A DNA stretch of 64,000 nucleotides from Bacillota bacterium (GTDB taxonomy: Bacteria > Bacillota > Clostridia > Peptostreptococcales > Anaerovoracaceae): NCBI GenBank assembly GCA_016293805.1, contig JAEDDI010000002.1, positions 18,653 to 82,652 on the forward strand, in the 5' to 3' direction. Positions within the stretch are counted from its first letter, which is position 1, and the number at the start of each line of letters is the position of its first letter. The notes beneath the pieces were generated by a model, which worked only from the letters and a program-made list of their open reading frames with translations, was not told the origin of the DNA and searched no databases. The translations under genes were made by a program, and so were the position numbers. Shown piece by piece: positions 1-35,399 of this stretch.

Positions 1-117
1 AAGAGCAGCACCCATTCTGCGGCAGATTCTGCGAAACGGAGAATCTGTTATCCCTGCAAGGGGCGCCAGAAGAAACGGTGAATCAAGCTTGAGCCCCGCT
101 ATTTCACATTTGTGCAT
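1..117 (-). CDS. tRNA-dihydrouridine synthase, N-terminal fragment (continues off the left edge)
   Basis: Own translation from ATG at 117: MHKCEIAGLKLDSPFLLAPLAGITDSPFRRICRRMGAAL. The LAPxAGxTDxPFR segment is typical of Dus N-termini. The start overlaps the coaX stop. Not in the ORF track because it is truncated. Confidence 0.6.
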   Translation of the reverse strand, partial: MHKCEIAGLKLDSPFLLAPLAGITDSPFRRICRRMGAAL

Positions 118-914
118 TTCTTTCTTTTTTCTTTCTTGTTCTTTTCGTATATTATCTCAAGACCTTCGAGTGTGAGCATCTTGTCGACATAGTCAATACA
201 TGCTGCTCCCTTGTCTATCAGTGTAGCAAGACCGCCTGTTGCGACAACTATAGGGTCTCTGCTGCACTCTACAGTCTCTTTAAGTTCTTTCTTCATCTTG
301 TTCACTACAAACTCTACCATTCCCATATGTCCGTACACAAGTCCGGACTGCATTGACTGAATGGTGTTTCTGCATATTGTATGTCCCGGCTCTTCCAGTT
401 CAACCTTAGGCAGTTTCGATGTCTTTTCGAAAAGAGCCTCAGATGAAATCTTAAGTCCGGGTGCTATTGTTCCTCCAAGGTATTCAGCCTTTTCGGATAC
501 AGCACAGAAAGTTGTAGCTGTACCAAAATCAATTATAATCAGCGGGCCTCCGTATTTTGCATATGCCGCAACAGCGTTTACAATTCTGTCTGCCCCGACC
601 TGCTTGGGATTATCGTATTTGATTATCAGACCGGTCTTAACCCCCGCCTCGATTACTATAGCCCGTCTGTTGAAATACTTTGTTGATAAATGCTGGAGTG
701 TGAACAGCATCGAAGGTACTACTGTCGATATTATTACATCCTCGATATCCGACACAGCAAGACCTTCGTAAATAAACAGCTGATTGATTATCATGCCGTA
801 TTCATCGGCACTCTTGGATGTATCGGTCTCAAGTCTCCAGTTGGTAAGGAGCTTGCCTTCATCAAACACACCAAGAACAATATTACTGTTTCCAACGTCA
901 AATGCCAGTAGCAT
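99..914 (-). CDS. coaX: type III pantothenate kinase
   Basis: 271 aa. N-terminus MLLAFDVGNSNIVLGVF plus IIIDFGTATT and ATGG motifs of the CoaX/ASKHA fold. AAGGAGA SD upstream. Confidence 0.9.
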   Translation of the reverse strand: MLLAFDVGNSNIVLGVFDEGKLLTNWRLETDTSKSADEYGMIINQLFIYEGLAVSDIEDVIISTVVPSMLFTLQHLSTKYFNRRAIVIEAGVKTGLIIKYDNPKQVGADRIVNAVAAYAKYGGPLIIIDFGTATTFCAVSEKAEYLGGTIAPGLKISSEALFEKTSKLPKVELEEPGHTICRNTIQSMQSGLVYGHMGMVEFVVNKMKKELKETVECSRDPIVVATGGLATLIDKGAACIDYVDKMLTLEGLEIIYEKNKKEKRKKCTNVK

Positions 915-960
915 GGTTAGTCTCCTTTTGCTCTGATTGAATTTGCATATAGCCTTCTGT

Positions 961-989
961 ATTATACAGTACTTTATAATTCATGTCAA
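961..989 (-). promoter_or_regulatory. sigma-70-type promoter for coaX (TTGACA-N17-TATAAT)
   Basis: Minus strand reads TTGACA (989..984), a 17-nt spacer, then TATAAT (966..961). It lies just downstream of the preceding gene's terminator hairpin. Confidence 0.5.
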
Positions 990-1043
990 AAAAATCAGGA
1001 AGGAACCTTCCGGCCCTTCCTGTAAACTGTGCTGTATTTTAAA

Positions 1044-2345
1044 TTATTCGTAATCAGGGAATACTGATTCTGCAGCGATGTCAGTAAGTTTTTCAGTCCA
1101 TGTAACGCCTTCCTTGATTTCGATATCATATGTGATACCAAGGTCTTCAGCGTACTTAAGGTACTGAGTAACCTGTTCGTCGTTCATTTCGTCTGATGAA
1201 ATCAGTCCCTTCTGTGTAATAAGGTCGTTTACGAAAAGCTTAGTGAACATGAATGCGCCCTGTCCTGTAAGGTACATTTCACCAGTCATCTTTGCAAGTT
1301 CATATGATTCAACAAGTCCAGGTGCTGTAACGTGAAGATCAACCATTACATCCTTTCCGTCCTTCTTACCGTATGCTTCTACTACAAATGCGCCGCCGTC
1401 TGATACAAGACCTTCGTCAATGATTTCCTTGATTACTTCAGGATCCTTTGGAGCTGCAGGAGTATGAGCACGGATTACTTCGTGAGGAATAAATGTATGT
1501 CCGTTTACTGTTTCTTCTTCGTATGAAAGAAGTCCTGCTCTTGCAAGAGGTTCTGCAAATTCGATACCAACTCCGCCGTACTTGAAGTAAGCGTTCTTAC
1601 ATCCCTTGAAGTACTTGTCAGCATGGAATCCTACATATGTAGGCTCATCGTGTGAGTGCTCTACCATTCTAACAGGTTCGCCGTTTGTTTCAGGCCATGC
1701 TCTGTAGATAGGGTTTGAGAATGCAGGTGTTCTAAGGTGCTTTCCATCTTCAAATGCAAGTGCGTCTTCTGACATGTCAGCAAGTGCAACATCTGGTGAC
1801 CACCAGAAAGGAATGAATCTCTTAGCTTCAACGCCTTCGTATACCATCATGTTGATAGTATCGCATTCGTCAAGTTCCTGAACAGCTCTTCTTGCCATTA
1901 CGCACATAACTCCTGGAGCTGAACCTGTACCGATAAGTGCAGTTGCATTCTTCGCTGCAAATTCCTTACCGATAACCTTGTACATATAGTTAACTCCTGC
2001 AATCCAGCTGTGGTATTCATCAACGTCATCAACAAGTCCTTCGCATGCTGAAAGATCCTGATAGCAGATTCCAAGTTCCATAGCTGCCTTTAATACGTTT
2101 GTAAGAAGTTCAAGAGGCATAACACCTACGATAAGTTCACAGCCTTCTGCTGCCTTCTTGATTTCTTCTACCTTAGTGGCATCAACCTGCTTAGGTGTAC
2201 CCTTAGTCATAAGTCTGCATACTGCTTCAGCTGCATCCATACTGTAATCGGCACATATTACTTCTTCAATGTTAGGTTCCTGGTCGAGTTTTCTGCAGAT
2301 TGTAGAACCCTGTGCTCCGCATCCGCATACCATTACTTTCTTCAT
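1044..2345 (-). CDS. saccharopine dehydrogenase family NAD(P)-binding protein
   Basis: 433 aa. N-terminal Rossmann motif VMVCGCGAQGS and overall saccharopine/carboxynorspermidine dehydrogenase-like layout. GGAGGAAG SD. Substrate unknown. Confidence 0.65.
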   Translation of the reverse strand: MKKVMVCGCGAQGSTICRKLDQEPNIEEVICADYSMDAAEAVCRLMTKGTPKQVDATKVEEIKKAAEGCELIVGVMPLELLTNVLKAAMELGICYQDLSACEGLVDDVDEYHSWIAGVNYMYKVIGKEFAAKNATALIGTGSAPGVMCVMARRAVQELDECDTINMMVYEGVEAKRFIPFWWSPDVALADMSEDALAFEDGKHLRTPAFSNPIYRAWPETNGEPVRMVEHSHDEPTYVGFHADKYFKGCKNAYFKYGGVGIEFAEPLARAGLLSYEEETVNGHTFIPHEVIRAHTPAAPKDPEVIKEIIDEGLVSDGGAFVVEAYGKKDGKDVMVDLHVTAPGLVESYELAKMTGEMYLTGQGAFMFTKLFVNDLITQKGLISSDEMNDEQVTQYLKYAEDLGITYDIEIKEGVTWTEKLTDIAAESVFPDYE

Positions 2346-2504
2346 AAACTTCCTCCTAAAAATGATATATTATCAAAATGTTGAACGGTCTCTGTCCGGG
2401 TCAATCCCCGGTTACAGCTGAAGTTTATCCCAAAGAAAACCGGTTTGCCATAGCACTAAGGGTCCAATTTGCATCTGAACACTTACTGATACCTGGTATC
2501 AGAA

Positions 2505-2531
2505 AACAAAAAAGCCCCGAATTCGGGGCTT
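2505..2531 (-). terminator. rho-independent terminator after the biotin-carrier gene
   Basis: Palindrome AGCCCCGAATTCGGGGCT (2513..2530) followed on the minus strand by a T-run. Confidence 0.75.
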
Positions 2532-2543
2532 TAGGGACTGTGT

Positions 2544-2927
2544 CTAGATTATTGTAGCAAGTACATCATCAGTATTTACTGCCGCACCTGCTGATACCGG
2601 AATTGTATCTATAGTTCCCGCATTTGGAGCTACGATTTCATTTTCCATCTTCATTGCCTCTAATATCATGATTACATCTCCGGCGTTAACTGCCTGTCCC
2701 GGTGCAACCTTCACTTCAAGCACAGTACCAGGCATCGGTGCTGTAACCTTTGCAGCTCCTGCTGCAGGTGCAGGTGCTGCCGCTGGTGCAGGCTTTGCTG
2801 CAGGTGCAGGCGCTGCCGCAGGTGCAGGTGCTGCCGCTGGTGCAGGTGCCGCTGCAGGTGCTCCGCCCACTTCTTCAACTTCTACTGCATATGTAGTACC
2901 GTTTACAGTGATGTTATATTTCTTCAT
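2544..2927 (-). CDS. biotin carboxyl carrier subunit of a biotin-dependent (methylmalonyl-CoA/oxaloacetate) decarboxylase or transcarboxylase
   Basis: 127 aa. Biotinyl-lysine motif EAMKMENEI and a long Ala/Pro linker. Confidence 0.85.
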
Positions 2928-2945
2928 TTTCTGTTCTCCTTCTAT

Positions 2946-3350
2946 CTACATTCTTCTGCTTTCTATACATTCACCAAGTCCAGCACTGTTCCATGCGTTT
3001 GTCTGACCTGATACTCTTGTTATCTTTCTTACGATAATGTCCGATACGAATCTGTTTTCGGATGCGGCAATCGCTGCTGCTATCACAGCCACAAGTTCCG
3101 CATCATCTGTGGCATCAATCTGTTCCGCTTCTGCAGGCACTGCTGCAGGTGCAGGTGCATCTGCAGGCTTTTCCTTCTTTGCAGAACCGATTGTAACGCT
3201 CATTATCTTGATTACAGCCCACAGGATAATGAGGATTAAAAATGTAATTCCAAGCCCCATGCACATTGTCACTGTGGCTCCGGCAAGTCTTTCTCCCATT
3301 GTAAGGCTTCCAAATGCGCTCGGATTTGCAAACTGTTCCATTAATGACAT
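2946..3350 (-). CDS. OadG-family small membrane subunit (decarboxylase delta/gamma-like)
   Basis: One N-terminal TM helix (GLGITFLILIILWAVIKIM) followed by an Ala/Pro-rich tail. Located between the carboxyltransferase and the biotin carrier. Start refined to ATG 3350 (MSLMEQ...), preceded by a GGGAGGTG SD. Confidence 0.6.
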   Translation of the reverse strand: MSLMEQFANPSAFGSLTMGERLAGATVTMCMGLGITFLILIILWAVIKIMSVTIGSAKKEKPADAPAPAAVPAEAEQIDATDDAELVAVIAAAIAASENRFVSDIIVRKITRVSGQTNAWNSAGLGECIESRRM

Positions 3351-3364
3351 ATCCGGCACCTCCC

Positions 3365-4906
3365 TTAAAGTGGAATGTTACCGTGCTTCTTAGCAGGTAA
3401 TGATAATCTCTTTGAGCTGAGCATTTCAAAAGCGCTGATTACTCTCTGCCTTGTTGATGCAGGCTCTATTATATCATCTACATAGCCTCTCTCTGCTGCT
3501 CTGTACGGATTATTGAATTTCTCTTCGTATTCTGCAATCTTTTCCTGTCTCTTGGATATAGGGTCGTCTGCGCCTGCAATATCCTTCTTGAATACGATAT
3601 TTGCAGCACCCTCTGCGCCCATTACTGCAATCTGCGCTGTAGGCCATGCGAATACGATATCTGCTCCAAGTTCTCTGTTGCACATTCCGATATACGCGCC
3701 GCCATATGCCTTGCGAAGAACAAGTGTAACCTTTGGAACTGTAGCCTCGCAGTATGCATAAAGCATTTTTGCGCCATGTCTTATAATTCCGCCGAATTCC
3801 TGGCCTGTACCCGGAAGGAAACCGGGAACATCTTCGATTGTAAGAAGCGGAGTATTGAATGCGTCACATCTTCTGATAAATCTTGCAGCCTTGTCTGATG
3901 CGTTGATATCAAGACATCCGGCTCCAACCTTAGGCTGGTTTGCGATTACTCCTACTGTTCTTCCTGCAACTCTGATATAGCATGTGATTATATTCTTCGC
4001 ATAATGAGGCATGATGTCAAAAATCTTCCCGTCATCTGCTATTCCTTCGATAACCTTGTACATATCGTATGCCTTGTTAGGATTGTCAGGAATTATTGTC
4101 TCAAAGTCAGGAATCACCCTGTTCACATCATCTGCCGAGAATACCTCAGGCACAAGTTCCATATTGTTTGATGGCAGGTATGAAAGAAGTTCTCTTACCT
4201 GCATAAGGGCATCTCTGTCGTCCTTTGCGAAAAGATGAGCATTTCCGCTGATCTTGTTGTGTGTCATAGCTCCGCCAAGTTCTTCAGCCGATACTTCTTC
4301 TCCTGTAACAGTCTTGATTACTGCAGGTCCTGTGATGAACATCTGCGATGTCTTGTCGACCATTATGATGAAGTCTGTGATTGCCGGAGAATATACAGCT
4401 CCGCCTGCGCAAGGTCCCATGATTACAGAAATCTGAGGGATAACGCCGGATGATATTGTGTTGTTGTAGAATATTTTGCCGAATCCCGAAAGAGCGTTTA
4501 CACCTTCCTGAATTCTTGCTCCACCGGAGTCGTTAAGACCTACGATAGGACATCCCATCTTAAGTGCCATCTGCTGTACCTTAACGATTTTTTCCGCATG
4601 ATATTCACCGAGCGAACCGCCTAATACTGTGAAATCCTGAGCATATGCGTATACAAGCTTTCCGTCAACTGTACCATAGCCTGTAACAACGCCGTCACCT
4701 GTCGCTTCAACATCTGCCATTCCGAAGTTTGTGCATCTGTGTGAAACAAAAACATCGAGCTCAACAAATGACTTCTCATCAAAAAGGACTTCAAGTCTCT
4801 CTCTTGCTGTCAGTTTGCCGCTGTCGTGCTGCTTGTCGATTTTCTTCTGCCCTCCGCCAAGAGCGATTTCCGCTTTTTTCTGACGAAGTTCTTCAAGCTT
4901 ACTCAT
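3365..4906 (-). CDS. methylmalonyl-CoA carboxyltransferase / acyl-CoA carboxylase beta-type (decarboxylase alpha subunit)
   Basis: 513 aa. Typical carboxyltransferase sequence throughout (GGARIQEG, GPCAGGAVYSPA, AWPTAQIAVMG). Confidence 0.9.
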   Translation of the reverse strand: MSKLEELRQKKAEIALGGGQKKIDKQHDSGKLTARERLEVLFDEKSFVELDVFVSHRCTNFGMADVEATGDGVVTGYGTVDGKLVYAYAQDFTVLGGSLGEYHAEKIVKVQQMALKMGCPIVGLNDSGGARIQEGVNALSGFGKIFYNNTISSGVIPQISVIMGPCAGGAVYSPAITDFIIMVDKTSQMFITGPAVIKTVTGEEVSAEELGGAMTHNKISGNAHLFAKDDRDALMQVRELLSYLPSNNMELVPEVFSADDVNRVIPDFETIIPDNPNKAYDMYKVIEGIADDGKIFDIMPHYAKNIITCYIRVAGRTVGVIANQPKVGAGCLDINASDKAARFIRRCDAFNTPLLTIEDVPGFLPGTGQEFGGIIRHGAKMLYAYCEATVPKVTLVLRKAYGGAYIGMCNRELGADIVFAWPTAQIAVMGAEGAANIVFKKDIAGADDPISKRQEKIAEYEEKFNNPYRAAERGYVDDIIEPASTRQRVISAFEMLSSKRLSLPAKKHGNIPL

Positions 4907-5016
4907 ATATGTGTTCCTCCTTAGTGTATGGATTTGCTGTTGTCAGTTAATTAGTTTGTACAAAATAAATATATATCAAATGCAATAGCGATGCAATAAT
5001 TATATCGCTGTATACA

Positions 5017-6130
5017 TTATTCTTCCGGGCTGTCCGACGCCTTAAGTTTCTCGTTGATAAAGTAGTCGATATCGCCGTCCATAACGCCGTCAACATTGGA
5101 GACTTCCGCTCCTGTTCTGTGATCCTTCACCATTGTATACGGCTGAAAAACGTATGAGCGTATCTGGTTTCCCCATGTTATCTGCCCGAAATCGCCCTTA
5201 AGTTCCTTAAGATTCTCCTGGTGCTCCTTCTCTGCCAGTTCAATGAGTTTACCCTTAAGAATTTTCATAGCAGTTTCGCGGTTCTGAATCTGGCTTCTCT
5301 CGTTCTGGCATGTGACTACAATATTGGTCGGAATATGCGTTATTCTGACCGCGGAATCGGTGGTGTTTACATGCTGTCCGCCGGCACCGCTTGATCTGTA
5401 TGTATCAACTTTAATATCTTCGTCTGCTATAACAATGTTGATATCATCTTCTATTTCCGGCATCACTTCCACAGAGGCAAAGGATGTCTGGCGTTTTCCC
5501 TGTGCATTGAACGGAGATATTCTTACAAGTCTGTGAACACCATTCTCGTTTTTCAGGTATCCGTACGCATTTTCACCTTTAACTGAAATTGTGGCCGATT
5601 TGATTCCTGCTTCGGTATCATCCTGAAGATCAATCATAGATGTTCTGTAGCCCCTCTTGTCGCACCATCTGAGATACATTCTCAGAAGCATAGATGCCCA
5701 GTCCATCGCATCAACGCCGCCCGTTCCGGCATGTATTGTTACAAACGCATCATTGCTGTCATATTTTCCCGACAGAAGCAGTTCAAGTCTGAGCGATTCA
5801 ATATCCTCATCAAGCCGGCTGAACTTCTCAATCACTTCATCTGCCATCTCTTCATCCTCTTCAGATTCGGCAAGCTCAATCATAAGATGAATATCTTCAA
5901 TTCCATCCCTGAGACTGTCATATCCAGCCAGTTTCTTCTCTATTGTTTTCTTCTCACGAAGAAGTTTCTGAGCCCGGTCCTGATCAGACCAGAATTCAGG
6001 CTGCTCCGCCAGAAAGTTCATTTCATCCAGTTTATTCAAAAGACCCTCTGGGTCAAAGAGAACCTCCCGCTTCTGCAAGCTTTGCTTCTATCCTTGGTAA
6101 ATCCTGTTTTATCTGTTCTAGTTTAAGCAT
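5017..6130 (-). CDS. prfB: peptide chain release factor 2, expressed through a programmed +1 frameshift
   Basis: The track ORF 5017..6078 carries the SPF and GGQ (SGAGGQHVN) motifs. The true start is ATG 6130, giving MLKLEQIKQDLPRIEAKLAEAGGSL, then in-frame TGA at 6055..6053. Reading resumes at +1 as DPEGLL..., for about 370 aa. Confidence 0.93.
6052..6070 (-). promoter_or_regulatory. prfB autoregulatory +1 frameshift site (CTT TGA C) with upstream SD-like GGAGG
   Basis: Minus strand reads GCG GGA GGT TCT CTT TGA C. The slippery CUU-UGA-C spans 6058..6052, with an internal SD-like GGGAGG a few nt upstream. Confidence 0.9.
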
Positions 6131-26163: not shown

Positions 26164-26175
26164 TTCTTCGGAATG

Positions 26176-26320
26176 AAGAATACGGGAGAGAGCACACCGT
26201 GCCGCCGAAGGAATAACACTCTCAGGCAAAAGTACCGTATTCCGACCAACTCTGGAGAGCATAGCACCGACGAATTAATTATTTCAGGTACCAGGACAGA
26301 GCTTCGTCTCTGTTTTTTTG
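26176..26320 (+). promoter_or_regulatory. tandem glycine riboswitch with intrinsic terminator
   Basis: Aptamer 1: GAAUACGG-GAGAG...GCCGCCGAAGGAAUAA...CUCUCAGGCAAAAGUACCGUAUUC, with P1 at 26178..26185 / 26235..26242. Aptamer 2: CUCUGGAGAG (26250..)...CACCGACGAA...UUUCAGGUACCAGGACAGAG (..26301). Terminator: ACAGAG-CUUCGU-CUCUGU plus U7 (26296..26319), which shares the P1 3' strand. Confidence 0.85.
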
Positions 26321-29976: not shown

Positions 29977-31959
29977 CTATTCTGTTGTCGAAAGAATTGT
30001 ATCATATTTTTCAATCTGGCTCACCTTCAGTTCACCTGCTGCATTCGGATCAACTTTCTGTTCAAGTGCCAGCAGCGTAGGACTCAGGAAAGTGGTATCA
30101 AGTTTTTCCCCGTCTAAGGTAACATAGCTGTACTGGGTGAAATTCTGCCCCTTGATATAGTATCTGCTTCCAATCTTTACTATTTTGTCAATCCTGATAT
30201 CACGAAGCCCCATCTTCAAATCCGAAGCCTTCCATTCAGTTTCCCCGTATACATAACGCTTTCCGTAAAGCATATCATACCCTAGTGCTTTCAGATTCTT
30301 CTTGTAATCATCATCGTTATAGTAGTTCTGGTTGTATGAGACCAGCGTTCCGCTGTGTATTCCCAGTCTGTCCAGTACATAGGATCCTATCTGGTATGCA
30401 TATACATCGTGGTCTTCCTTCTCCATCTCAAAGTTCGACCAGATTACATACTGCGTCGCATAAAGCGAACCGCTCTTCATATCTTCCGCCTTCATATCGA
30501 GCGCAGGAAGATGGTCTCCGTACATGACAAGAACAACATCCTCGTCAAACTTCTCAAGCTCGGCAGTAAGGTTCTTTACAAAGTTATCCATGCTGTGAAC
30601 CATATTCACATAGTATTCATACTGCCACTTCTGCTCCTGGCTCGGCGCCTCTGTAACCTCTATCTCAGGATTCTGAATAAGCTGCTCTGTCGGATATTTT
30701 CCATGTCCCTCTACAGAAATTGTATATACGTAATCCTTTGTATCTGTAGATGTGAGCGCTTCCATTATCTCACCGATGAGCACATTGTCCTTCGCCCAGT
30801 TTTTAGGAGTTTTCTCTACATTATTCATGTATTCAAGAGCATCAAAATCATCAAATCCAAGATTTGCAAACACTTCATTCCGGTTATAGAATACTGCCCT
30901 GTGATTGTGAATGGCATGTGTTGAATATCCGAGTCTTTTAAGGTCAAAAGGAATACTCTCCATAGTCGTATCCCGAAGTACAGACTTGTACGGATACTCT
31001 CCGGGACCGAAGAATTTGGCGCTCATGCCTGTAATTGCCTCAAACTCCGTATTTGCAGTACCTGCGCCAACTGCAGGTACAATGAAGTACCCCGATGAAC
31101 ATTTATCAACAAGGCTCTTGAAATACGGCGCTGCGGTCTTAGAGGTTTCTATGCATCCGATAAGGTCCGGATCCACAAATGACTCAAGCTGAACAAAAAC
31201 AATATTAGGATGATCCTCTCTGCTTTCCTTCTCAGCAAGTTTATCCATGTTTTCAAGTTCACCGTTTCTGAATATGGACAGTATACTCTCCTCACTGTAA
31301 TCTTTCGGTTTTGAGATTCCTGTATTGAACCAAGTTGTAATGAAACTGTATACCACTCCGTTGTCAGCATATCCCTGTGCCAGGTTGCCAAAAAACGAGT
31401 CAACTATTCCTGCTCTGATACCGCCTGCCCACGAACCAGCTGTTACGGCAGCGATTATGATAAATACTGTGAGATTTCTCTTTATTCTGACTTTCGTCTT
31501 CTTTTTCGGTCCCTTAATGAAAAGGATTACAAATAATGCGGCGACAAGAACAATCCCTGCAGCCAGCATTACAATCTGAACCGTTGTAAGGTAATTGGTC
31601 AGAATTGAAACTCCGTCCTCAAGCATTGCAAGGTCGTTGATTGTGAACGGTGTCATTCTCTTGAGAAGAATAACTCCGTTAACCAGCCCGAGCGCTATCC
31701 AGATGACAGCGAATATTGAGAACACGAACACTCTTCTCCGAAAGAGGCTCGCTATTGAAAGCGTAAGAAATATAACCAGTGTATTTATTATAAATACAAG
31801 CGGACTTGTGAACATGAACACAACAGCCTGTATAAGGGAATGCCTGGCAAACGTCTCTATAAACAGTTCAAGTATCACGGCTGCCGCTGCAGTTACCGAA
31901 AGGCTGTTCACCCACGGTTTCTCTGCCAGTTTATTTATTGTCTCTTTAATCTTACCCAT
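29977..31959 (-). CDS. LTA synthase family protein (membrane-anchored sulfatase-fold)
   Basis: N-terminal TM bundle followed by an extracellular sulfatase-like domain (VQLESF, GTANTEFE, YGDHLP). Start refined to ATG 31959, which overlaps the rsmA stop (ATGGGTAA). Confidence 0.85.
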   Translation of the reverse strand: MGKIKETINKLAEKPWVNSLSVTAAAAVILELFIETFARHSLIQAVVFMFTSPLVFIINTLVIFLTLSIASLFRRRVFVFSIFAVIWIALGLVNGVILLKRMTPFTINDLAMLEDGVSILTNYLTTVQIVMLAAGIVLVAALFVILFIKGPKKKTKVRIKRNLTVFIIIAAVTAGSWAGGIRAGIVDSFFGNLAQGYADNGVVYSFITTWFNTGISKPKDYSEESILSIFRNGELENMDKLAEKESREDHPNIVFVQLESFVDPDLIGCIETSKTAAPYFKSLVDKCSSGYFIVPAVGAGTANTEFEAITGMSAKFFGPGEYPYKSVLRDTTMESIPFDLKRLGYSTHAIHNHRAVFYNRNEVFANLGFDDFDALEYMNNVEKTPKNWAKDNVLIGEIMEALTSTDTKDYVYTISVEGHGKYPTEQLIQNPEIEVTEAPSQEQKWQYEYYVNMVHSMDNFVKNLTAELEKFDEDVVLVMYGDHLPALDMKAEDMKSGSLYATQYVIWSNFEMEKEDHDVYAYQIGSYVLDRLGIHSGTLVSYNQNYYNDDDYKKNLKALGYDMLYGKRYVYGETEWKASDLKMGLRDIRIDKIVKIGSRYYIKGQNFTQYSYVTLDGEKLDTTFLSPTLLALEQKVDPNAAGELKVSQIEKYDTILSTTE

Positions 31960-32821
31960 TAAATCCTCCCTCTGAGATTGCTGAAGAAATGGCAGCAAAC
32001 TCTTCGAGACTGAGTGTCTCTGCTCTGCGAGAACCCTCTATGCCTGTCTCTTCCAAAACCTTCTTTATATCTTCCTTCGCAGTCCCTCCTGCCCCCACAA
32101 GAGAATTGGAGATTGTTTTTCTTCTCTGTCCAAATCCTTTTCTGATGCAGTCAAACAGAACTTTCGTATCTGGAACCTCCACACGCGGTTTTTCAAGTAC
32201 ATCAAACCTCAGCACTGCAGAATCAACCTTTGGACTTGGCACAAAAGCCTCCTTCGGCGCTCTTGCAATCTGTGTCACATCACAGTAATACTGCACCGCA
32301 AGAGATATAGCTCCTGCGTTCTTTGATCCTGCAGGCGCCTTGATTCTGTCTGCAACTTCCTTCTGCATCATACACGTTACAGATGCAGCCGGCACCCTGT
32401 CTTCCAGTATCTTCATTATTATCGGTGTAGTAATGTAATACGGCAGATTGCCGATAATCCTTATATTCGCATAGTCCTTATTTGCCTCAGCAATACCATT
32501 GAGATCAGTTTTCATAATATCCTGATTTATTACATTGAATTTATCATATCCCGAGAGCGTCTCCTGCAGAATCGGAATAAGTCTGGAATCTATCTCAACA
32601 GCTGTCACCGTCGCACCTATGTCAAGAATCTCCTTTGTGAGCACCCCTATGCCCGGACCGATTTCTATGACAAAGTCGTCAGGTCCTATTCCTGAGCCTT
32701 CCACAATTTTTTCAATAATATTTCTGTCCGTAAGAAAATTCTGTCCAAGCGACTTTGCAAACCTGAAATCATGCCTCGTCTTGATATCATTTATTGTCTG
32801 TGATGAATACAGTTTCATCAT
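31952..32821 (-). CDS. rsmA: 16S rRNA (adenine1518/1519-N6)-dimethyltransferase
   Basis: KSLGQNFL and EIGPGIGVLT motifs. Start placed at ATG 32821 (MMKLYSSQTINDIKTRHDFRFAKSLGQNFL). The 17-aa TTG-initiated extension in the track is probably not translated. Confidence 0.9.
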   Translation of the reverse strand: MMKLYSSQTINDIKTRHDFRFAKSLGQNFLTDRNIIEKIVEGSGIGPDDFVIEIGPGIGVLTKEILDIGATVTAVEIDSRLIPILQETLSGYDKFNVINQDIMKTDLNGIAEANKDYANIRIIGNLPYYITTPIIMKILEDRVPAASVTCMMQKEVADRIKAPAGSKNAGAISLAVQYYCDVTQIARAPKEAFVPSPKVDSAVLRFDVLEKPRVEVPDTKVLFDCIRKGFGQRRKTISNSLVGAGGTAKEDIKKVLEETGIEGSRRAETLSLEEFAAISSAISEGGFNG

Positions 32822-32886
32822 ATAGAACGGTCGGAGACCCGTGACTTTAGTCATGGGAGGAGACCGTAGCAATAGAATATTCTAAG

Positions 32887-34137
32887 CTAAGTCCCTTGTG
32901 CGACCTCTCTCCTTTCTGTTAAATATGTTTTTCTCTTCTCCAGTAGCTTAAGCTTTTTATGGCTTACTCCTGCTGAAAGCTTTGTTCCGTCAAGCGTTCT
33001 GATATCAAAGTAACCGTTACTTCTTCTGCCAAAAACGAAACACTCTTTACCTTTATACAACACCTTGTCAAAAAGCTGATATCCAGACACATACCTTGCC
33101 GCCTGGTTATTTTTCCTGTAGCCGCCCTTACTGATGGTCAGCTTATGTATCTGCCTGTTATGGCAGCGTACTTTCTTCTGGTAATAGTACTCCTTTGGAG
33201 GCTCTGCATTTGGATTTCCGCTGATGCATCTTGCGTCTGTGCGATGCGACTTCTCAAGTCCTGCACTGATTCTTGCATGTTTTGTGAGATATCCGTATGT
33301 CATTTTAACTTCAGGATATATTTCTTTAAGCGCCTCATACAGAGCCCATCGCATGACTCCCATAAAGGCGGCATCCCTAAATGACATGCCTCTTTTTATG
33401 GTCTTCGGCAGTTTTACAGTCCCTTGATGATACCCCGTATGGCATGTCTCACATAATGTGATCAGATTGTTTGGTGCATTGCCTCCGGTCCTTCTTGACT
33501 CTATGTGATGCACATTCAGCACTGAATCTTTGCTCTTTCCCATGCAGCACTGGCATGTGTGGCCATCGCGATACAGCACGTATTCCCTCACGTTCCAAAA
33601 GCCAAGCTGCTCGCCCTGCTGGTATTCTTCCCCGGCAATCTCCGGATTCTTAATCTTCAGAATATCAAACTGCGCTGTTTCAACTGTGATTTTGCTTACC
33701 GGAAGAATCTCATGCACATTCTCTATGACTCGAAGGTGTGTCTTTATCTTCTGCTGTACCGACGGGGCAAGCCATCCCTCAGGTCTTCTTCTGTTATCAA
33801 ACCTTGCCTTGCGATACCGGGTCTTTCGGTTTCGACGTGCCCGGCGCAGTTCTCTCCGCCCTGAAAGAAGCTTTACAATATCGTTTCTTAGCTCAACCTC
33901 GGCCTCATAAAGTACCTTATCTTCCGTCGCAGCAGATACTCCTATTACCTTGGAGCCTGCGTCAATCCCAAATGATACCGGCTGAACCTTCTCCTCAGCG
34001 TGATAGTTAAGCTTAATGGTAAACGGACAGCGATTTACTACTTTGGCTTTGCCGCTGCTTAGCATTCGCCTTACCTTGCCGAAACGCTGCGTCGGCATAA
34101 GTGGCTTTCCGTTATCGTTGATTACATATACCGGCAT
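32887..34137 (-). CDS. iscB: IscB-type RNA-guided endonuclease (RuvC + HNH, PLMP N-terminus)
   Basis: 416 aa from ATG 34137 (SD AAGGAGGAG 7 nt upstream). GKPLMPT; GIDAGSKVIGVS (Asp59); RRELRRARRNRKTRYRKARFDNRRRP; ITVETAQFD (Glu153); CQCC...NVHHIESRRTGGNAPNNLITLCETCH; SHRTDA (His298/Asp301); beta-rich C-terminal domain. Confidence 0.9.
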   Translation of the reverse strand: MPVYVINDNGKPLMPTQRFGKVRRMLSSGKAKVVNRCPFTIKLNYHAEEKVQPVSFGIDAGSKVIGVSAATEDKVLYEAEVELRNDIVKLLSGRRELRRARRNRKTRYRKARFDNRRRPEGWLAPSVQQKIKTHLRVIENVHEILPVSKITVETAQFDILKIKNPEIAGEEYQQGEQLGFWNVREYVLYRDGHTCQCCMGKSKDSVLNVHHIESRRTGGNAPNNLITLCETCHTGYHQGTVKLPKTIKRGMSFRDAAFMGVMRWALYEALKEIYPEVKMTYGYLTKHARISAGLEKSHRTDARCISGNPNAEPPKEYYYQKKVRCHNRQIHKLTISKGGYRKNNQAARYVSGYQLFDKVLYKGKECFVFGRRSNGYFDIRTLDGTKLSAGVSHKKLKLLEKRKTYLTERREVAQGT

Positions 34138-34426
34138 AACGTTTCTCCTCCTTAAGTGATTTTTTCTCTTTTGCTGCATTAATGCTGTAAGCCGGATGCA
34201 GCATCCGTAAGTTAGCCTTCGCCAATGTTATTGCAGGGTTTGACGAATGCAACACTGTTCCTACCCTTCAGAACTGTTTAATCACATTCCGTAGAGCACG
34301 GGACTAGGCTATAACATCCCGTGGTACCTATTTCCTGCATAACGTAGTGCTCTTGGCACTTAGGCTAGTCAACTAGGGCTGATAGAGTTTAATGCGCAGC
34401 ATTATTCTTCATACAAGCCCGCGACT
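34138..34426 (-). ncRNA. candidate omega-RNA (guide + scaffold) of IscB. Boundaries are unknown.
   Basis: 289 nt with no ORF of 60 aa or more on either strand, directly 5' of iscB, which is the canonical omega-RNA position. Hand-found helices: GCUGCGCAUUAA (34400..34389) with UUAAUGCAGC (34182..34173); AGAGCAC (34353..34347) with GUGCUCU (34299..34293); CGGAUGC/GCAUCCG around 34192..34206; AGGGU/ACCCU. Confidence 0.6.
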
Positions 34427-34969
34427 TCAGTCGTGGGTAATTGACTTTCCAGCTGCCTCTTCAAATTTTTCTCTTGTGATTCCGTAGCTGTTCAGTTTTC
34501 TCAGGAAAGCCTGAGCATTGCCGTATCCTATTCCAAGATATGACCCTGCTGCCTGACGTTTTTCCCTGGAACCCGGGCCGGTCAGTCCTGTACGTACCAG
34601 ATCATTCATGGTAAATTCATCTTCCTGCACTGCAACCCTTGTACATACTTTCGAAAGAGCCTCGACTATAGCCGCAGGCTCCGCATTTTCAATGCCTATA
34701 TCTCCGTCTTTTATGGCCCTGTCCCTTGTGAGAAAAGCCTCCTTCGCATCCGGATATCTTTTCAGAACCCTTTTTCTTATCTCAAGACCGGCTCTGTCCG
34801 GATCTGTGAATATGATAATACCTTTTGACCTGTAGGCCATATCCATTAAATCCCATGTCTCTTTTCTGATACCGTAGCCGTGAGTTTCGATAGTCTCTGC
34901 TTCACAGGCTCTTTTTACTGCCGCTGTATCATCTCTTCCCTCGACTACAATCACTTCTTTAATTATCAT
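34427..34969 (-). CDS. rnmV: ribonuclease M5 (Toprim domain)
   Basis: IKEVIVVEGRDDTAAVKRA Toprim motif and DPDRAG. Start refined to ATG 34969 (MIIKEV...). Confidence 0.85.
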   Translation of the reverse strand: MIIKEVIVVEGRDDTAAVKRACEAETIETHGYGIRKETWDLMDMAYRSKGIIIFTDPDRAGLEIRKRVLKRYPDAKEAFLTRDRAIKDGDIGIENAEPAAIVEALSKVCTRVAVQEDEFTMNDLVRTGLTGPGSREKRQAAGSYLGIGYGNAQAFLRKLNSYGITREKFEEAAGKSITHD

Positions 34970-35399
34970 CTGAACGTTTTTCCTCATCAGGTGACATATA
35001 AAGAATCTCATCAGGATATACCATGTTGAGTTTCTCTCTCACCTGTTTTTCTATATACTCGGGATCGTTAACATTCTCCAGTTCCTTCTGCTTGCTGCTC
35101 AGAGTCTCCTTCAGTTCCTCCTGCTGCTTTACGAGTTCGTGCTTCTGCTTTTCAAGTCTGACAATATTTACAGACGATAAAGCTATCGCACCTGCAACAA
35201 GGAGAATAATGAGAGCGATAATCACGCGCTTTCTGCTCCTGTTTTTCTGATATCTGCGTTCAGGAGCCTGCTCCATTATCTCTACTGTCTTCTCGGCTGC
35301 CCTGCGGCGCTTCTCCCTGCGCTGCTGACGCGCCTTGTCGAAATCCACAACATTGCTGTTCCTGTTAAATTCCCTGCTTCTGCTTCTTGGTTTTGACAT
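34959..35399 (-). CDS. septum formation initiator (FtsB/DivIC-like) protein
   Basis: 146 aa. Basic N-terminus, one TM (VIIALIILLVAGAIAL), then a coiled coil (LEKQKHELVKQQEELKETL). Confidence 0.6.
   Translation of the reverse strand: MSKPRSRSREFNRNSNVVDFDKARQQRREKRRRAAEKTVEIMEQAPERRYQKNRSRKRVIIALIILLVAGAIALSSVNIVRLEKQKHELVKQQEELKETLSSKQKELENVNDPEYIEKQVREKLNMVYPDEILYMSPDEEKRSDDN

Follow-up and report, generated by a model that had tools for sequence, protein, structure and literature searches.

An IscB RNA-guided nuclease and its omega-RNA on a non-autonomous IS200/IS605-type element between rnmV and rsmA in an Anaerovoracaceae genome

The locus

The DNA analysed here is a stretch of 64,000 nucleotides (the window) of contig JAEDDI010000002.1 in the Bacillota assembly GCA_016293805.1 (family Anaerovoracaceae), and all positions below are window positions unless another locus is named. 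The subject is iscB, a minus-strand gene for an RNA-guided nuclease of the IscB type, together with the omega-RNA encoded directly upstream of it and the insertion sequence (IS) that carries both between the housekeeping genes rnmV and rsmA. According to the convention used for the transposase TnpA, the top strand of the element is the plus strand of the window, with the left end (LE) at 32819 and the right end (RE) at 34445. The element, the gene and its Shine-Dalgarno (SD) sequence are located as follows, with the evidence in brackets.

32819..34445, minus strand: complete non-autonomous IS200/IS605-type element of 1,627 bp, carrying the omega-RNA and iscB (blastn with empty sites)
32887..34137, minus strand: iscB coding sequence, 416 amino acids (aa) plus stop codon (translation, Pfam, NCBIfam, phmmer, alignment and fold search)
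34147..34153, minus strand: AAGGAGG, the Shine-Dalgarno sequence of iscB, which precedes the ATG by 9 nt (read from the sequence)

The IscB protein

The minus strand of 32887-34137 translates into a 416-aa protein identical to the one quoted in an initial annotation of this DNA. The motifs of IscB are found in the translation: the PLMP motif (GKPLMPT) at residues 10-16, GIDAG with D59, the Arg-rich stretch RRELRRARRNRKTRYRKARFDNRRRP, ITVETAQFD with E153, an HNH module with C195/C197/C198, H210/H211, N223/N224 and C229/C232/H233, and the RuvC-III motif SHRTDA with H298/D301. Across 52 aligned homologues, no variation is seen at D59, E153, C195, C197, C198, H210, H211, N224, C229, C232, H233 or D301, and conservation of H298 and N223 is at least 90%. 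A mechanical open reading frame (ORF) reaches upstream to ATG 34179 and gives 430 aa; the start is nevertheless placed at 34137, because AAGGAGG lies at 34147-34153 and because the IscB model and the homologues begin at residue 1-3.

In Pfam, the protein matches RRXRR at residues 3-175 (224 bits, E=1e-66) and HNH at residues 195-238, and residues 3-305 match the NCBIfam model NF040563, 'RNA-guided endonuclease IscB' (the guided_IscB equivalog), with 381 bits (E=4e-114) at a cutoff of 175 bits. A phmmer search of PDB sequences found OgeuIscB at E=4.5e-51, and residues D59/E153/H211/H298/D301 align with D61/E193/H247/H340/D343 of that protein, a correspondence also returned by a profile search. 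The AlphaFold2 model of the 416-aa protein has a predicted local distance difference test score (pLDDT) of 72.7 and a predicted template modelling score (pTM) of 0.75; its ten best fold matches in the PDB (Foldseek) are cryo-EM structures of IscB and IsrB, headed by 8csz (E=4e-28), and Cas9d structures come next. When residues 306-416 are modelled alone, they form a beta-rich domain (pLDDT 77.5), and it is plausible, although weakly supported by the fold matches, that this is the domain that interacts with the target-adjacent motif (TAM).

The initial annotation had described an IscB with intact catalytic motifs, and this is borne out by NF040563, by the alignment with OgeuIscB and by conservation across the 52 homologues. 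All the residues that it listed stand where it placed them; only its range for the PLMP motif (11-17) was off by one. Its start at ATG 34137 with a strong SD agrees with AAGGAGG, the IscB model and the homologue starts, and its beta-rich C-terminal domain resembling the TAM-interacting domains of IscB and IsrB finds a counterpart in the 306-416 model and its weak fold match. Of the checks it had proposed, the hidden Markov model search matched RRXRR, HNH and the IscB-specific model, the structure comparison gave IscB/IsrB complexes as the top PDB matches of the AlphaFold2 model, and the active-site comparison aligned D59/E153/H298/D301 with the RuvC residues of OgeuIscB. Judged by its sequence, the gene is a genuine and intact IscB RNA-guided nuclease.

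The gene is also under purifying selection. Its ratio of nonsynonymous to synonymous substitution rates (dN/dS) is 0.175 and 0.096 in comparison with copies that are 88% and 75% identical, respectively, and all sampled copies of iscB are full-length at 416 aa. Exact-sequence look-ups with the window IscB, and with RsmA from its native ATG, returned no match; the best match in a scan of genome contigs is 68% identical. An association with Cas9 or CRISPR was considered and rejected, since no CRISPR-like arrays were found within the window and the genes neighbouring iscB are housekeeping genes.

With regard to size, the protein had been called clearly shorter than characterised IscBs, which does not hold. 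The 120 closest homologues measure 406-445 aa, full-length representatives at 50% clustering (among 6,393 matches) mostly measure 400-445 aa, IscB has been described as a protein of approx. 400 aa (Xiao et al., PMC11666462), and MG35-1, with 429 aa, has already been characterised. A length of about 416 aa is the mode of the family; unusual compactness is rejected, and the protein is short only relative to the subgroup of OgeuIscB and OrufIscB. The expectation that an automated pipeline could label it only as an HNH endonuclease likewise fails, as NCBI names the 99%-identical proteins MDD6389407.1 and MCI5884827.1 'RNA-guided endonuclease IscB'. IscB relatives abound in IMG/VR contigs (at least 526 matches, the viral loci L055-L134 among them), and some of these contigs carry two IscB copies, e.g., UViG_3300045988_179818 (L059, L070).

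Omega-RNA, guide and target-adjacent motif

The RNA component and its predicted targeting signals occupy the following positions.

34207..34445, minus strand: omega-RNA scaffold, Rfam family HEARO (RF02033), model positions 1-211 of 211 (147.7 bits, E=6e-31)
34173..34202, minus strand: additional 3' omega-RNA hairpin (GCUGCAU...AUGCAGC) outside the Rfam model (conserved stem, alignment with relatives)
34446..34461, minus strand: predicted native guide AAGAGGCAGCUGGAAA, the flank just outside RE, comprising the last rnmV codons (position according to the published architecture)
32813..32818, minus strand: predicted TAM, which reads ATGAA(A) in the sense of iscB and corresponds to the TnpA target TTCAT on the plus strand; rsmA starts with its ATG (directly adjoins the LE boundary on the outside)

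The HEARO match lies directly 5' of iscB on the same strand, and the gathering score of RF02033 is 83 bits. Single-sequence folding of the region was uninformative (z = -1.5), and the covariance-model match is therefore relied on. HEARO was also found upstream of iscB in 17 of the 20 genome relatives and 37 of the 40 viral relatives that were scanned. The additional hairpin at 34173-34202 sits between the HEARO match and the SD, and its stem is kept in the related locus L038 by compensatory changes (GATATGC/GCATATC). Its position beyond the model agrees with the remark that RF02033 does not include downstream omega-RNA elements (Meers et al. 2023, bioRxiv 10.1101/2023.03.14.532601). The initial annotation had proposed co-expressing the protein with the 289-nt region upstream of the gene; that region leaves out the initial 19 nt of the scaffold, which fall within the extended rnmV ORF (34427-34445), as well as the guide (34446-34461). 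A terminator scan gave results at chance level.

Within the 5' stem-loop region of the scaffold, at 34372-34407, the window carries an insertion of approx. 25 nt (TATGAAGAATAATGCTGCGCATTAAACTCTATCA) that is missing from L034-L038. Among other relatives, L075 has two tandem HEARO matches, in L068 HEARO is closely preceded by a ROOL RNA and a tRNA, and L088 contains RAGATH-30 RNAs.

In the published model of IscB, the scaffold derives from RE, sequence flanking the element on the adjacent 5' side serves as the guide, transcription comes from an upstream gene in the same orientation, and the TAM is the target of the transposase (Meers et al. 2023). The layout of the window fits this model: rnmV is upstream and co-oriented, the guide lies outside RE, and the TAM equals the target. 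The length of 16 nt for the guide is an assumption; no second perfect match to it occurs anywhere in the window. In most relatives, ATGAA is found 17-23 nt past the LE hairpin (18-19 nt in the window, L034 and L037). The predicted ATGAA is the other-strand equivalent of TTCAT, the TAM determined experimentally for GstIscB (Meers et al. 2023), and ATGAAA fits the NWRRNA motif of OgeuIscB.

Element boundaries and empty sites

Each end of the element carries a subterminal hairpin.

34418..34437, minus strand: subterminal imperfect hairpin of RE, CCCACGACTGAAGTCGCGGG, at a distance of 8 nt from that end, which doubles as a 5' stem-loop of the omega-RNA scaffold
32838..32857, minus strand: subterminal imperfect hairpin of LE, CCCATGACTAAAGTCACGGG, at a distance of 19 nt from that end

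The 20-nt hairpin CCCAYGACTRAAGTCRCGGG has exactly two copies in the window, at 34418-34437 and 32838-32857, where 0.02 would be expected by chance. Both copies lie on one strand; they agree at 17 of 20 positions, and each has a G-T mismatch at the same place in the stem. No terminal inverted repeats were detected at the element ends. A motif CCTCC (anti-SD-like) was observed directly 5' of, or overlapping, the LE hairpin on the iscB-sense strand, in the window (32858-32864) and in many relatives, including L006, L009, L010, L012, L018, L034 and L037.

The RE boundary is fixed by the points at which related copies diverge: the 99%-identical copy in L001 shares the window sequence from exactly the 34446/34445 boundary, and in the more distant copies of L034-L038 the similarity ends immediately upstream of GTCAA. 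Together with the TAM, the boundaries predicted an empty site in which ...GCTGGAAA is joined to ATGAAACT... and the rnmV stop codon overlaps the rsmA start codon, and this prediction was confirmed. The empty site was reached via the protein cluster of ribonuclease M5 (RnmV), which contains a 194-aa allele ending in ...AAGKSITHD and a 189-aa allele ending in ...AAGK. In six empty-site contigs (L049-L054), the flanks are 99.1-99.7% identical to the window; rnmV (4001-4570) and rsmA (4567-5433) overlap there by 4 nt, with no element between them. In a blastn comparison with L049, positions 1-4566 match the window up to 34446 and positions from 4567 onward match from 32818, so that the junction is scarless and free of duplication. 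It reads ...GCAGCTGGAAA followed by ATGAAACT... (in longer form, ...GAAGAGGCAGCTGGAAA followed by ATGAAACTT...). As the empty site joins 34446 to 32818, the element extends over 32819-34445, has no target duplication and is inserted 3' of TTCAT on the plus strand. It is an IS200/IS605-type element. A degenerate DNA pattern of the empty site found no match in JGI metagenomes.

Both states are frequent in the collection, in which the occupied allele was indexed in 89 blocks and the empty allele in 42. Whether occupied or empty, the contigs have flanks with 99.0-99.7% identity to the window, the one exception being the downstream flank of an occupied contig (97.4%), and the two alleles are intermixed by flank similarity rather than forming two lineages. 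The IS copies of different strains differ by 0.1-1.0%, about as much as their flanks. One copy, in contig L001, is 99.4% identical and has the same rsmA flank and a completely different upstream flank (L001:1-1972, compared with the window from 34446 onward). This upstream flank contains a fragment of acetate kinase together with two small ORFs, and an SD-like motif (GAGGT) is located 5 nt from the boundary. Rearrangement, insertion in a second context or chimeric assembly could account for it.

The host operon

Two housekeeping genes adjoin the element.

34427..35011, minus strand: rnmV (ribonuclease M5), in the orientation of iscB, with its last 5 codons and stop (SITHD*) derived from the element (Pfam Toprim and DUF4093)
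31952..32818, minus strand: rsmA/ksgA (16S rRNA dimethyladenosine transferase; Pfam RrnaAD)

The insertion point is the ATGA at which the stop codon of rnmV and the start codon of rsmA overlap. The element supplies the end of rnmV at 34427-34444, and RnmV is consequently 194 aa long in the occupied state versus 189 aa in the empty state. On the other side, the element parts the rsmA start codon from the upstream SD-like AGAGG and from translational coupling with rnmV. It also brings an in-frame ATG (32852-32854), located inside the LE hairpin 12 codons upstream of rsmA, because of which gene callers report an RsmA of 300 aa in occupied strains compared with 288 aa in empty ones. The source names in the protein clusters are metagenome-assembled genomes (MAGs) of Anaerovoracaceae, Clostridiales or Bacillota, and at least one sample with a related copy is labelled gut metagenome.

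Proposed mechanism

The locus is very probably a single-copy, non-autonomous IS200/IS605 element of the ISC/IscB type, whose only cargo is the omega-RNA and an intact IscB and which would be retained, or would home, through cleavage of empty sites. The data above bear directly on what the element is, how it is built and where it ends, on its TAM and guide sequence, on the empty sites and on purifying selection; the steps of transcription, ribonucleoprotein formation, cleavage and homing are inferred from the published mechanism. Transcription of the rnmV operon would cross the right end and yield an omega-RNA with a 5' guide of approx. 16 nt taken from the rnmV flank; rnmV is the likely source of this read-through. 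The complex of IscB and omega-RNA would then recognise a match to the guide followed by the TAM ATGAA(A), a combination that is expected only at a vacated site. In the empty-site strains, the guide sequence is identical and stands intact together with ATGAAA; at the occupied site the guide match is followed by GTCAAT instead of a TAM, and the occupied site would be protected for this reason. HNH (H211) would cut the target strand and RuvC (D59/E153/H298/D301) the other strand, and repair of the break from an occupied copy would lead to retention or homing of the element. Excision and insertion would need a Y1 TnpA supplied in trans. The most likely function of the system would thus be guide-directed cleavage of the vacated site, forcing recombinational restoration of the element.

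Several observations weigh against this account. The element has been seen at essentially one chromosomal site in the species (rnmV-rsmA), apart from L001, and recent transposition is not demonstrated; the polymorphism of occupied and empty sites could also arise by recombination between strains. No TnpA was detected in the 64-kb window, the only check being a weak tblastn with an IS608 TnpA sequence; nearby tnpA is missing for approx. 98.5% of iscB genes (Meers et al. 2023). A promoter scan gave results at chance level, and expression of the omega-RNA rests on the assumed read-through. As regards the protein, the HNH domain was modelled by AlphaFold2 at low confidence (pLDDT <50), and the C-terminal 75 aa could not be aligned by sequence to the TAM-interacting domain of OgeuIscB in the profile search against the PDB. 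The best PDB matches of the 306-416 model, HfmIscB and DtIsrB, are weak (E ~2-3e-3), ahead of generic SH3/Tudor barrels.

Alternative explanations

Some of the same observations would be expected of an immobile relic, in which IscB and the omega-RNA are non-functional or decaying at a fixed chromosomal site. The species has the element at one site, TnpA was not found in the window by the weak tblastn, and the strain-to-strain divergence of the IS (0.1-1.0%) resembles that of the flanks and suggests long residence. Nonetheless, a relic is improbable: the catalytic and zinc-binding residues are all intact, the sampled copies are all full-length at 416 aa with a dN/dS of 0.1-0.18 in comparison with diverged relatives, the omega-RNA scores far over the Rfam threshold, and both end hairpins and the TAM are preserved. 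The intermixing of occupied and empty alleles by flank similarity also argues against a relic.

Still less probable is co-option of the element by the host, for instance for tuning the expression of rnmV and rsmA, with nuclease activity being incidental. The empty allele is common (42 blocks), which indicates that the host does not need the insertion, and the nuclease residues are conserved. Co-option would explain why the element is found in a housekeeping operon, precisely where it separates the rsmA start codon from the SD, why the C-terminus of RnmV is altered by 5 aa, and why related elements are placed alike far above chance (see below); however, a TAM that contains ATG, combined with selection against gene disruption, explains this placement as well.

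A conventional, protein-guided HNH homing endonuclease of the phage or group II intron type, suggested by the Pfam HNH domain and by the many relatives on viral contigs, is ruled out for practical purposes, given that the top profile, sequence and structure matches are all IscB, IsrB or Cas9d, that the split RuvC fold is present with D59/E153/H298/D301 conserved, and that a HEARO RNA is tightly linked to the gene.

Insertion at start codons

The placement of the element recurs among its relatives. The LE outer flank begins with ATG in the window and in relatives. For 18 independent related elements, the left boundary was anchored on the hairpin, ATGR sites served as controls, and an ORF was counted when it had at least 50 aa and, in the reconstructed empty site, was preceded by no more than 20 open codons. 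By this definition, 13 of the 18 elements have a co-oriented ORF starting at the flank ATG, compared with 158 of 1,761 control ATGR sites (9%; p=2e-10), and an SD 4-mer occurs in the last 17 nt of the RE flank, i.e., the guide region, in 11 of 18 compared with 12% of controls (p=1e-6). With a looser boundary definition, the flank ATG opens such an ORF in 19 of 36 elements versus 10.6%. Related elements thus usually separate a co-oriented gene's start codon from its SD, as the window element does at the ATGA overlap of rnmV and rsmA. The related loci concerned fall within L002-L094, and the matching window positions are 32813-32818 and 34446-34465.

One tentative explanation, which we consider rather unlikely, is that the IscB/HEARO elements of this clade are 'start-codon dockers', for which the TAM (ATGAA/ATGRN) would typically coincide with the start codon of a host or phage gene in the same orientation and the guide would be the ribosome-binding region of that gene. 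The placement between SD and ATG may simply reflect an ATG-containing TAM together with selection against disruption and for read-through, that is, survivorship. No description of IscB elements placed between SD and start codon was found in the literature examined. If docking were a true strategy and not survivorship, it would be a new aspect of the biology of OMEGA systems (OMEGA standing for obligate mobile element-guided activity); it would guarantee read-through transcription for the guide and perhaps allow translational re-initiation from iscB into the host gene.

Other features of the window

A glycine riboswitch aptamer (RF00504, 55.3 bits) was found at 26173-26247 on the plus strand, approx. 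750 nt from the start of an opposite-strand ORF of the Na+/H+ antiporter family. At 2737-2862, the window contains a GC-rich tandem repeat with a period of 18/36/54 nt (TGCAGGTGCTGCCGCAGG) and approx. 6 copies, which is probably a coding Ala/Gly-rich repeat.

Significance

The locus is an ordinary, already annotated member of a very large and well-understood family. IscB, its omega-RNA, the transposon context and the role in homing or retention have all been published, and the locus carries little weight as a discovery. It does offer a cleanly delimited natural case, with guide, TAM, both ends and wild empty sites, in which donor-joint targeting could be tested, and, for the screening of tools, it adds one more short-form IscB (416 aa) whose TAM is predicted to be ATGAA. 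The pattern of insertion between SD and start codon might merit a systematic survey.

Comparison with known systems

Among the best-studied relatives, OgeuIscB (PDB 7XHT, 7UTN, 8CSZ) and OrufIscB (9NVU) have the same domain order and catalytic residues as the window protein. They are longer, with 496 and 492 aa, respectively, versus 416 aa: both have an insert of approx. 30 aa past the bridge helix (residues 117-144 in OgeuIscB) and a C-terminus longer by approx. 30 aa, whereas the window protein has neither. To judge from its position, this insert is probably the 'beta-hairpin REC linker' of Kannan et al. (PMC13180657). Closer in length is MG35-1, a HEARO nuclease of 429 aa (Goltsman et al. 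2022, PMC9755519) that resembles the window protein in its size, its RuvC-I aspartate (D59) and its HEARO guide RNA; its TAM and RNA details may differ. MG35-1 is active in vitro and in E. coli, and a D59A nickase variant of it has been described (PMC9755519).

At the level of the element, the window element resembles IS608 and ISDra2, which encode TnpA and TnpB, in having imperfect subterminal hairpins that lie on one strand, in inserting 3' of a specific short motif, in lacking target duplication and in scarless excision. The spacing from hairpin to end is 19 and 10 nt in IS608, comparable to the 19 nt (LE) and 8 nt (RE) of the window element. Unlike IS608 and ISDra2, the window element has no tnpA; its cargo, on the opposite strand, is IscB with an omega-RNA at the 5' side, where those elements have TnpB and a 3' right-end element RNA (reRNA).

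A further close parallel, compared by description only, is GstIscB of ISGst5 from Geobacillus stearothermophilus (bioRxiv 10.1101/2023.03.14.532601). The window element differs from ISGst5 in belonging to a lineage of Anaerovoracaceae/Clostridiales gut MAGs and in occurring as a single copy at one operon site. The likenesses are that ISGst5 is also a non-autonomous IS605-type element, with its scaffold in RE, its guide outside the element and TTCAT as TAM and target. The catalytic residues D58/H209/H210 of GstIscB correspond to D59/H210/H211 of the window protein, and this nearly equal numbering indicates that the two proteins have the same short architecture. Finally, the natural target of GstIscB is the empty 'donor joint', as proposed here for the window element.

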